From: Escherichia coli O157:H7 | GTDB lineage: Bacteria; Pseudomonadota; Gammaproteobacteria; Enterobacterales; Enterobacteriaceae | Reading direction: 5' to 3' (one strand) | Assembly (NCBI RefSeq): GCF_013167455.1 | Contig: NZ_CP038328.1 | Length of the DNA stretch: 64,000 bases | Shown: piece by piece, positions 15,001 through 18,000 of the stretch | How the letters are laid out: each line of letters starts with the position of its first letter | Numbering within the stretch: the first letter of the stretch is position 1 | Position numbers: made by a program

Positions 15001-18000
15001 TGATAGCCAGAGCAGATTGTTCTGATGCGCCAAACAAGATATCTGCATTTTTTTTGGCATCTTCATTCCATTTGTTCTGTGGGCCGTAATGAACGTTCAC
15101 TATAATACCTGTTTTTTCGGCATAAAGTTTGGCTGCATCAAGCAAGGCTGTATGCGGGCCACCAGGACCATACAGATTGATATCAGCATAAGCAGCAGAA
15201 GACAGGAATATTAAAAAACCTGCCATTATGTTCCTCATAAAAAACTCCTTTTATTGGTTATCATGAAATAAAGTTATAAACACTACAAATAATATATATT
15301 ACATCCAGATAAACTTATCCGACTTTACCTCGTGCATAGCTTGTTATTTAAAGTCAACAAAATAAGGAAAATTATACGCATATTGAAGAGTATAAACCTT
15401 ACATGTTGATTACATTTTTGTAATCAACATCCTGTTTGGAATAGCCAGCCTTTAATGGATAACTATTTCTGACAATGCAATGAGTATAATCAAGTCCATC
15501 TTCCACTGAGAATTAGAGGCGGCATGCTTTTTCCGGCTCTTGCCGGATATCCGTAATTGTCCATAATCTGCAGATTTATACCTTCTGCATGACCTGTCAG
15601 CGAAAATTTGTCCGGTGTTTCTACGGGAATGACATCAAAAGTTACACGCACTCGCGTTACCGTGTAGACCTACTTTCCTGCACTTGCAAGATCACAGTGG
15701 TGTAACCGTAACAGGAATTTATTCTCTGGACCGGCAGTAAATCCCTGAGTGGCGTGGTTCCCATATCAATTTCCCGCCAGGCAGCCTCCATTGCCAGCGT
15801 ACAGGCTGGAGCCATGACCTGCCCTTTAAATCTGGCCCGACCATCCCACCGGACGTGTTCTTCTCCCCTGAACTTAGGTACAGTCATCTCCAGTGGCACA
15901 AAAGTGTCAGCGCCATAATTTTTGACCGTTATCGCGCTACGGATATTTTGTTGACTGGTGAAAATCACCCCGCAGAATCAGGCTTATTCCCTTAACCTGG
16001 GCTTTCATCCTGACCGCCGCCTCACTACGACCAATCAGACTGCCGATGCATTTTACCTTCATTGTTAGTATCATGATTTCAGGCCTGCACCATCCGCTCA
16101 TTGCCCGGACTTCCGACAAATCCCGGCAACCATATCCCGGTGCTTGTTCAGCTCCCGCAGCGCGGCGCAGACTCGCTCCCACTTCTGGACATGATTCTTC
16201 GCCCTACGCAGTTCGCGATTTGCCATATGCAGCGATGGCAAAATCAAATCATCTTCTCGCGTTGCAGTAAACGATGGCAGCGACTGCACAATGTCCGCCA
16301 CAGTTTCTGTTTTAATATCTTCCTGTGTTGCATCTTTCTGTACCGGTAACGCAACACCGGCTGGCTGAGGAAAGGCTTTACCATCGGTTTCCGCTACCGA
16401 TTCAACTTTCGGCTCTGCTGGTAAATTATCACCTGGTATGCAGTAACGAATTTTACCGTTCTGGTTTACGCGAATCAGACGACCTTTGCTGATTGCCATT
16501 GCCAGCGTTGAAGCAACTTTGCGGGATGTTGTACCGAACAGCGTAGCCAGTTCATCCGCCGTTTGTGGTCCGCGTTGTTCAATCGTCGCGGTTAAATCGC
16601 ACTCTGAGATTTTCGCTTCTGTTGCCGTGGTGGTTTCTTCTGGCGCTGGCTGTTCCTGCTGAACGTTGTTATCAGCCACACGCCAAGTGTATACGCTTTT
16701 ATCAACGAAGCCAGCCTTTTTCAGTTCCCACAGCTCGTTCAGTACTTCTTCACGACTGATATCAAGTCGCGCAGCCAGCTATACCGACGTGGCTTTTCCC
16801 ATCGCTTTCAGTGCGTCAAAAACAGTCTCCATAAATTTCCTCCCGGTAAAAAATCACTTCTCAACTCAAACAAAACCAGCCGCTTTCCGGCGTTCATATT
16901 CCTGTTTCAGCAACTCAATTGGCGTTGGCCCCGACGGGCGTTTGGGGGCCGCCAGTTGTCGCCGGACTGGCGGAACGCTCAGGCCGTTACTAACATGCTT
17001 TGCCCATTTCGTCAGTTGCCGTTCTGCAAGCCGTTTTAATTCCCCTTCGGTCATCTGGCGCTCAATCCCCTTTGAACGCATCTCGAGGCAAATGTGATAC
17101 AGCACAGGCTGAGACCACGGGTACTTATCACTTCCGTCGTATCGCCAGGACTCATTGCGCCAGCGGCGGTACTCCTCCATCACAGCATCCACCGTCAGAC
17201 CGAATGGATTGGCTCCGCTTTTCGAAATCAGTGCCACAAACTCAGCCAGGTCCGGAGGCCATGTTTCACCCGCCCGGCAGCGGTCCATGCACTGGCGGCA
17301 GACCTGCCGGATTTGCTGCTCAGTCATCGCGCCAATCTGTGCAATCCAGAGCTTCGAAGGTGCGGCCCCGTTCTTCTGGATCCAGCGGTTCGAATAAACC
17401 ACCCCCATGAGTTCCCACAGCTTCCAGGCCGTTTCCGTCGCTGATAAATCCGTTTTCACGTTCCCACTGCTCACGTGCTGCCCGAATTTCCTGAACTGCC
17501 CGTGATGCGGTGCCACCTGGTGCTGCTGCATGGTTTACCCCTTTGCTGACTGGTTTAACCTGCGCCCTGACGTGATTTACGTGACGGGCGAATTTCTGCT
17601 CCCACTGAATCTGCGTAAACACTTTCCCCTCCGCTGCCCAGTAGTCCCGGAAGGCGGCAAGTTCAGCAGGTGTAAATTCTGTCTCCGGCAAAGCCATCCC
17701 CCACAACGCAGCCCGTCGTCGAAAATCCCGTGACGGATACCAGCTATCGCTCATCGGGAATTTTCCGATGGGTTCGCTCAGGCCATACAGGAATACAGGG
17801 GGGGCTGCCTGTAACGACAAAACTTCCTGCTCACTGGTCGGAGCACTCTCGCGTGCGTTATGTGTGGGGTTTAGATCTTTGGGTTCCTTTGGGTTCCGTG
17901 ATCCGTTTTTGGGTGTCTTTGATGGAAAATTTGGGTGTCTTTGGTTATTTTCCATGCAGCTAAGAGTTCTGTTTTTGGGTCTGTTTTGTGCTGAAACATA

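Follow-up and report, generated by a model that had tools for sequence, protein, structure and literature searches.

An amber codon in place of Glu18 makes the ydaW-family gene of prophage Sp9 in Escherichia coli O157:H7 a very probable young pseudogene

Results

The interrupted reading frame

We analysed a stretch of 64,000 nucleotides of Escherichia coli O157:H7 (contig NZ_CP038328.1 of RefSeq assembly GCF_013167455.1), hereafter the window. It includes a ydaW-family gene of the lambdoid prophage Sp9/PPompW, the frame of which is interrupted by an amber codon. The frame lies on the minus strand: it opens with an ATG (16832-16830), runs through 17 sense codons (METVFDALKAMGKATSV), meets an in-frame TAG at codon 18 (16781-16779) and then continues for 226 sense codons to a TGA (16100-16098), making 245 codons as a whole. 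The TAG is its only interruption, and the first canonical start past it is a GTG at 16679 (codon 52), which heads an open reading frame (ORF) of 193 amino acids. Random sequence would stay open over 226 codons with a probability of about (61/64)^226, or about 2e-5. Because the open run is beyond chance and the translation matches both DUF1627 and PHROG 630 (see below), this is a real coding frame that has been broken once. An earlier note, made from the sequence alone, had described a TAG after codon 17 followed by about 225 open codons; its coordinates and description are correct, the count being 226. We sought a second copy of the gene within the window and found none. The features of the locus and of its surroundings are listed in Table 1.

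Table 1. Coordinates of the interrupted gene, its signals and the neighbouring features of the window
Feature	Position	Strand	Basis or remark
Shine-Dalgarno region GGGAGGAAATTT, directly 5' of the ancestral ATG	16835..16846	-	Duplex energy with the anti-Shine-Dalgarno sequence
ATG start	16832	-	-10.3 kcal/mol, GGGAGG 5' of the codon; strongest in the region
Codons 1-17 (METVFDALKAMGKATSV), conserved ydaW/DUF1627 N-terminus, now a 17-codon mini-ORF	16782..16832	-	Translation, alignments
In-frame amber TAG in place of Glu18 (GAG)	16779..16781	-	G-to-T transversion at 16781
Codons 19-244, gene body still open	16101..16778	-	Translation, PF07789, AlphaFold2
CTG, codon 19, immediately 3' of the TAG; start chosen by the Prokaryotic Genome Annotation Pipeline (PGAP)	16776..16778	-	-3.0 kcal/mol, background level; coordinates of the annotated coding sequence
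Internal GTG, codon 52; start in the Sakai annotation (ECs_5720)	16677..16679	-	-0.9 kcal/mol; alignment
TGA stop, overlapping the ATG of the next ORF (ATGA)	16098..16100	-	Sequence
54-aa ORF downstream, start overlapping the stop of the gene (ATGA)	15937..16101	-	phrog_30109, E = 6e-17
P-like helicase-loader gene, just 5' of the ydaW-family gene	16866..17327	-	phrog_109, E = 1.8e-54
O-like replication initiator gene	17320-18360	-	Upstream of the P-like gene
Decayed fimbrial gene preceding paa/adfO	~15400-15935	-	PGAP "frameshifted; internal stop" in EDL933, DEC5D and 493/89
paa/adfO (AcfC-family) adhesin gene, moron block downstream of the DUF1627 gene	14480-15238	-	
hokD/sok type I toxin-antitoxin module	13989-14291	-	hok-type ORF 13989-14201; sok RNA 14142-14291, RF01794, 103.9 bits
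ALIL frameshift pseudoknot in the IS629-like element	13329-13445	-	Rfam RF01497
Prophage tRNA-Arg(tct) and CAT-anticodon tRNA (ileZ-type in the Sakai annotation), late region	7970-8202	-	
tyrT/tyrV chromosomal tRNA pair	50875-51253	+	

Codon 18 and the N-terminus across the family

The closest relatives of the gene are intact. In the PPompW prophage of O145:H28, it is an uninterrupted coding sequence of 735 nucleotides that differs from the window at two bases only, 16781 and 16686. At 16781 the coding strand has a T in the window (TAG) and a G in PPompW (GAG, Glu), and this is the sole base that separates the frame from an intact gene. The difference at 16686 is a synonymous change private to the window (ACC to ACT, Thr49). 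The O55:H7 strain DEC5D carries the same prophage genes with GAG at codon 18, and there the product is an intact protein of 244 amino acids (WP_000450692.1), otherwise identical. Rac-SA53 and phage 683R6 have GAA at this codon. Among the best 120 representatives of 90%-identity clusters, 117 have Glu18 and 117 start at M1.

More distant relatives were sought among 1.84 billion representatives of 50%-identity clusters, which returned a small family of 178 clusters. The full-length distant members (25-67% identity) align from residue 1 or 2 of the query. In an alignment of 43 members spanning 21-67% identity, position 18 is Glu in 37, and L8, K13, A14 and A20 are nearly invariant. Residues 1-17 are conserved down to about 25% overall identity, with the motif METV..ALKAMGKA at the M1 of the homologues. 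Over codons 1-20, the DNA differences between the window and Rac-SA53 are all synonymous, and the Shine-Dalgarno element (GGGAGGAAATTT) is kept in PPompW, Rac-SA53 and 683R6. Hence, the 17 codons upstream of the TAG are not a leader but part of the conserved gene, where they encode one and a half helices at the head of a winged helix, since they are conserved as protein, differ only synonymously and stand at the M1 from which the homologues start. These comparisons also show that the ATG at 16832, with its strong Shine-Dalgarno sequence, is the conserved start of the family. At position 52, where the window has an internal GTG, 27 of the 43 family members have Leu, 11 have Val and 2 have Ile.

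The earlier note had proposed that an alignment with homologues would tell which residue the TAG replaces, and that homologues starting at the internal GTG, with the upstream codons not conserved, would reduce the upstream piece to a leader. The alignments place Glu (GAG or GAA) at the TAG and the start of nearly all close homologues at M1, with the 17 upstream codons conserved. The locus has a premature stop where its orthologues have a sense codon, and the gene is intact in the outgroup, as expected of a nonsense pseudogene.

Family membership and the predicted protein

We ran the profile searches on the frame with codon 18 restored to Glu (244 amino acids). The Pfam family DUF1627 (PF07789, E = 1.3e-92) matches residues 84-236 with positions 1-153 of the 155 in the model, and the profile of PHROG 630 (phrog_630, E = 6.7e-123) matches residues 1-242, starting from profile position 1. 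Residues 1-47 gave matches to HTH_20, MarR and TrmB-type families, all of them sub-threshold, and searches of NCBIfam and of PDB sequences with residues 2-48 returned sub-threshold ArsR/SmtB and MntR winged-helix similarity only. The profile match, the N-terminal motif MET(V/I).DALKAMGKA and the position after the replication genes are all present, whereas an uninterrupted frame is not. By descent the locus belongs to the YdaW/DUF1627 family, of which it is a disrupted member.

An AlphaFold2 model was built on the 43-sequence alignment and has a mean predicted local distance difference test (pLDDT) score of 81. It contains a first winged helix (residues 1-52, pLDDT at least 95) and a second one (residues 77-131, pLDDT at least 94), with a disordered linker separating the two. 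These are followed by a disordered linker rich in Pro and Glu and by a long C-terminal helix (residues 201-243, pLDDT about 92). The model shows, as a prediction, that the ancestral gene encoded a protein of 244 amino acids with two winged helices, a disordered linker and a long helix at the C-terminus. The "winged-helix-like segment" that the earlier note had seen is thus matched by two modelled domains. Helix 2 of the first winged helix (residues 16-23, pLDDT at least 95) is the element that the TAG interrupts.

YdaW has been described as a predicted MarR-type winged-helix DNA-binding protein (PMC9308461). In an overexpression screen, a cloned fragment of the K-12 ydaW blocked the retron-Sen2 toxin RcaT (bioRxiv 10.1101/2020.06.22.160242), and DUF1627 genes have been listed as conserved neighbours of the PasA/PasC small RNAs (bioRxiv 10.64898/2026.05.13.724894). 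A function for the protein was also sought in solved structures and curated families, which gave only sub-threshold similarity of ArsR, MntR or MarR type and a generic tandem winged-helix fold.

Distribution and age of the amber allele

We searched complete E. coli genomes with the 81 nucleotides that have the TAG at their centre, and 297 of the 5,426 contain them without a mismatch. Every one of the 11 rows that we sampled evenly from these 297 hits is O157:H7 or belongs to an O157-type strain series. Sakai, the re-sequenced EDL933 and 493/89, a sorbitol-fermenting O157 strain, all have the same TAG. O55:H7, O111:H8 and others fall in the class of hits just below, which has one mismatch over the 81 nucleotides. 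The products annotated at the locus, of 226, 193 and (intact) 244 amino acids, are each present on at least 999 public contigs.

The 81 nucleotides around the private base at 16686 have an exact match in one complete genome only, that of the bovine strain F2_407_2_2, and no complete E. coli genome was found that combines the TAG with T at 16686. Compared with Sakai, the window differs by one synonymous base over 851 nucleotides. No second lesion was found in the gene body, as the top-listed O157:H7 matches of this 851-nucleotide query (99.9%) differ only at 16686.

The age of the TAG can be bracketed because it is shared by 493/89 and typical O157:H7 and is absent from the sampled O55:H7. On this comparison of sequences, the mutation arose after the split from the sampled O55:H7 lineage and before the split between sorbitol-fermenting and typical O157:H7, and it is fixed in the clone. 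As a marker the amber allele is clean, since the sampled typical O157:H7 and 493/89 have it and the sampled O55:H7 and the PPompW phages of O145 do not.

Initiation, termination and suppression at the locus

To follow how the remainder of the gene might be expressed, duplex energies with the anti-Shine-Dalgarno sequence of the 16S rRNA were computed for the candidate starts (Table 1) and set against an in-gene background with a mean of -2.3 and a standard deviation of 2.0 kcal/mol. An internal ribosome-binding site or promoter was rejected: neither CTG19 nor GTG52 rises above the background, and a consensus scan for sigma-70-like promoters found no site on the minus strand inside the gene. In the AlphaFold2 model, a product started at CTG19 would lose helix 1 and the start of helix 2 of the first winged helix, and one started at GTG52 would lose the whole of this domain. 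We also looked for natural short DUF1627 proteins. All candidates were rejected: some were fragments, one was a product of a frameshift that fused the gene to the ORF downstream, and others were joined to the N-terminus of a replication gene. There is thus no credible alternative start that would rescue a complete functional product.

An Rfam scan at the gathering threshold over positions 12000-22000, made for structured RNAs or recoding elements near the TAG, detected only the ALIL pseudoknot and the sok RNA, both located elsewhere. No suppressor tRNA was found within the window, whose four tRNAs have the anticodons tct, cat, gta and gta. The anticodons of tyrT and tyrV are the wild-type GTA, so this is not supF.

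Public annotation of the locus

The same locus carries three annotations in public genomes: an intact protein of 244 amino acids in O55:H7 and O145, a protein of 226 amino acids starting at CTG19 in EDL933 and 493/89 (PGAP, WP_077744273.1), and one of 193 amino acids starting at GTG52 in Sakai (ECs_5720). Neither of the two O157 annotations flags a premature stop or a pseudogene. The allele is already on record under shortened annotations, both in the Sakai and EDL933 reference sequences and in databases of proteins. Searches of the literature by ECs locus tags and WP accessions found no paper that discusses the locus. The annotations of the reference genomes hide the lesion, with the consequence that N-terminally truncated DUF1627 sequences have spread into protein databases. 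For studies of the function of YdaW/DUF1627, the O55:H7 or O145 allele is preferable to that of O157:H7.

The prophage and its other features

From position 1 to about 26035, the window runs collinear with the left part of the Sp9 prophage that Sakai has integrated beside ompW. Beyond about 26035 it is chromosome, tyrT and tyrV included. The region is 99.9% identical to Sp9 of O157:H7 Sakai, to the equivalent prophage of EDL933 and to many other O157:H7 genomes, and 99.8% identical to the PPompW prophages of O145:H28. The order of an O/ydaU-like gene, a P/ydaV-like gene and the ydaW-family gene is also that of PPompW, Rac-SA53, 683R6 and the Rac prophage of K-12. The annotation of this prophage in 493/89 (L007, 1-1001) gives a frameshift in the O-like replication gene, a further and independent sign of prophage decay.

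The last 10 residues or so of the ydaW-family frame (16098-16130, minus strand) diverge from the Rac-type C-terminus (…HRDIVRQI..SEK), and the nucleotide similarity stops there. The sequence suggests a mosaic junction within the 3' end of the gene, where the moron block of Sp9/PPompW starts. The 54-aa ORF that follows is WP_001505071.1 in EDL933, DEC5D and 493/89 and is annotated in Sakai too; judging from the ATGA overlap, it is probably translationally coupled to the DUF1627 gene. In one public variant (P0121), a frameshift has fused the DUF1627 gene and this ORF.

The 851-nucleotide query matches four to seven places in each O157 genome, which indicates that these genomes contain paralogues of the gene. 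With the TAG in place, the Sp9 prophage of Sakai still undergoes excision, circularisation and spontaneous packaging (PMC2669165).

The decay of the fimbrial gene that precedes paa/adfO predates the amber mutation, because the same marking is found in EDL933, in O55:H7 DEC5D and in 493/89. An IS629-like element of the IS3 family, of about 1.31 kb (about 12470-13780) and with the terminal repeats TGAACCGCCCCGG..., separates the hok/sok module from the early gene that follows; Sakai Sp9 and EDL933 lack it at this site. A segment of 71 bp (about 21217-21288) in the intergenic early-left region, flanked by TTTCGCG direct repeats, is absent from Sakai Sp9. This difference is most simply a deletion in Sakai.

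Discussion

A young nonsense pseudogene

The locus is very probably a young pseudogene, produced in the ydaW-family gene of Sp9/PPompW by a nonsense mutation from GAG to TAG (Glu18 to amber) that is fixed in the lineage. The earlier note had considered a recent nonsense mutation as one of its two readings, and the comparisons bear it out: Glu18 stands in O55:H7, in the O145 PPompW and in the large majority of both close and distant relatives. The relatives have Glu18, the same start and conserved first 17 residues, which argues for a nonsense mutation and against a leader followed by an internal start. Ribosomes would start at the normal ATG and be released after 17 codons, within helix 2 of the first winged helix, and no functional full-length protein would be made. 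That the body of 226 codons is still open would reflect nothing more than the youth of the O157 clone, which has not had time to accumulate further lesions. Any protein from this body would need rare readthrough or a reinitiation at CTG19 or GTG52 that lacks a Shine-Dalgarno sequence, and would be made without a first winged helix able to fold. The loss of translation may also weaken the expression of the overlapping 54-aa ORF, the coupling with which is probably lost.

The gene appears dispensable for the prophage, because the Sp9 of Sakai is still excised and packaged with the TAG, because the ydaW of K-12 Rac is a pseudogene and because paralogues exist. This is ordinary decay of a prophage gene, and nothing at the locus departs from it. 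Its biological weight is little, as what has been knocked out is a single accessory gene of one prophage among the many of O157:H7 that are partly defective.

Some points weigh on the other side. There is no second lesion in the gene body of any O157 genome seen, so that relaxed selection is not demonstrable; since an intact body is expected in a very young clone, this is not informative against a pseudogene. E. coli can restart translation after early nonsense codons, and a low level of truncated protein is possible. The curators of Sakai and PGAP both annotate the remainder as a gene and not as a pseudogene. Finally, that the TAG is confined to O157 holds for the sampled rows and not for all of the 297 records taken one by one.

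Alternative explanations

The gene could be functional in a shortened form, through initiation or reinitiation at CTG19 or GTG52. The product would retain the second winged helix and the C-terminal helix, with its activity kept or altered; one possibility is interference with the DUF1627 paralogues encoded by other O157 prophages. In favour of this, no stop breaks the 226-codon body, which is the same in hundreds of genomes, and the second winged helix and the C-terminal helix are predicted with high confidence as independently folded units. The annotators picked these two starts, and O157 genomes hold several paralogues. Restarts in E. coli are documented and occur without strong ribosome-binding sites, as in the restarts of lacI. 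However, neither start has a Shine-Dalgarno sequence above background, homologues do not share codon 52 as a start, the scan for promoter-like sites within the gene was negative, and the search for natural members that are intact but devoid of the N-terminal winged helix found none. In so young a clone, the body would be expected to be open in any case. We regard a functional short form as unlikely. The expression of a truncated product from the internal GTG, the second reading of the earlier note, finds no support in the pairing energy of this codon, in the Leu, Val or Ile that homologues have there, or in the scan for internal promoters. A more specific version is that the CTG19 or GTG52 product acts as a dominant-negative or altered partner of the paralogues, and that the amber allele is kept for an effect on prophage cross-talk or anti-defence rather than being neutral. 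This we consider very unlikely.

The TAG could also be decoded, by programmed readthrough or by a suppressor tRNA encoded elsewhere in the genome, so that the full-length protein is made. The base after the stop is a C, TAG-C being one of the weaker termination contexts in E. coli, and the remaining frame is intact. Against this, no tRNA with a CUA anticodon was found in the window, which is the part of the genome that was scanned, and tyrT/tyrV, the classic supF locus, is wild type. The relatives have a Glu codon at this position and not a conserved stop, so no conserved readthrough element is expected. Natural readthrough of UAG in E. coli is very low. Decoding of the TAG is thus extremely unlikely.

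Two further explanations have next to no chance of being right. A sequencing or assembly error at about 16781 in an intact gene, which the earlier note had suggested checking, would fit a single-base substitution, the kind of change an error could yield, and the window also has a private base at 16686, but such an error is excluded by the 81 nucleotides that are identical in 297 independently sequenced genomes and by the presence of products from downstream of the TAG on at least 999 contigs. A leader or upstream ORF of 17 codons, in a gene that always started internally, would agree with the downstream starts of Sakai and PGAP and with the coverage of Pfam DUF1627 (residues 84-236 only), but is rejected by the alignments of close and distant full-length homologues, which start at M1 with the conserved motif, by the synonymous substitutions, by the coverage of PHROG 630 from residue 1 and by the complete winged helix modelled over residues 1-52.

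Comparison with known systems

ScpB, a tandem winged-helix protein, was matched by Foldseek across both domains of the modelled protein with E = 2.5e-4, at a root-mean-square deviation of 10-16 Å and a template modelling score of about 0.2. Single modelled domains superpose on ArsR/MarR-type proteins at 1-3 Å, and the C-terminal domains of SelB share the fold. In the model, the tandem winged-helix likeness is a resemblance of fold only and not membership in any of these families, and it does not indicate DNA binding over protein binding.

By descent, the nearest counterparts are the proteins of PPompW in O145:H28 (BCI49274.1) and of O55:H7 DEC5D (WP_000450692.1), which lie in the same prophage at the same position and are identical to the window at 243 of 244 residues. 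They have GAG for Glu18 and the full 244 amino acids, whereas the window has the TAG and the private synonymous base at 16686. ECs_5720 and WP_077744273.1 are the same allele with the same TAG as the window, and differ from each other and from our description in annotation only. The ydaW of K-12 Rac belongs to the same family, DUF1627, with the same synteny after ydaU/ydaV, and is about 90% identical over the 78 nucleotides aligned of an 81-nucleotide N-terminal query. It too has been inactivated, in a cryptic prophage, but by another route: the K-12 gene lost its C-terminus by deletion ("missing C-terminus"), whereas the gene of the window has an amber codon near the N-terminus and a complete C-terminus.

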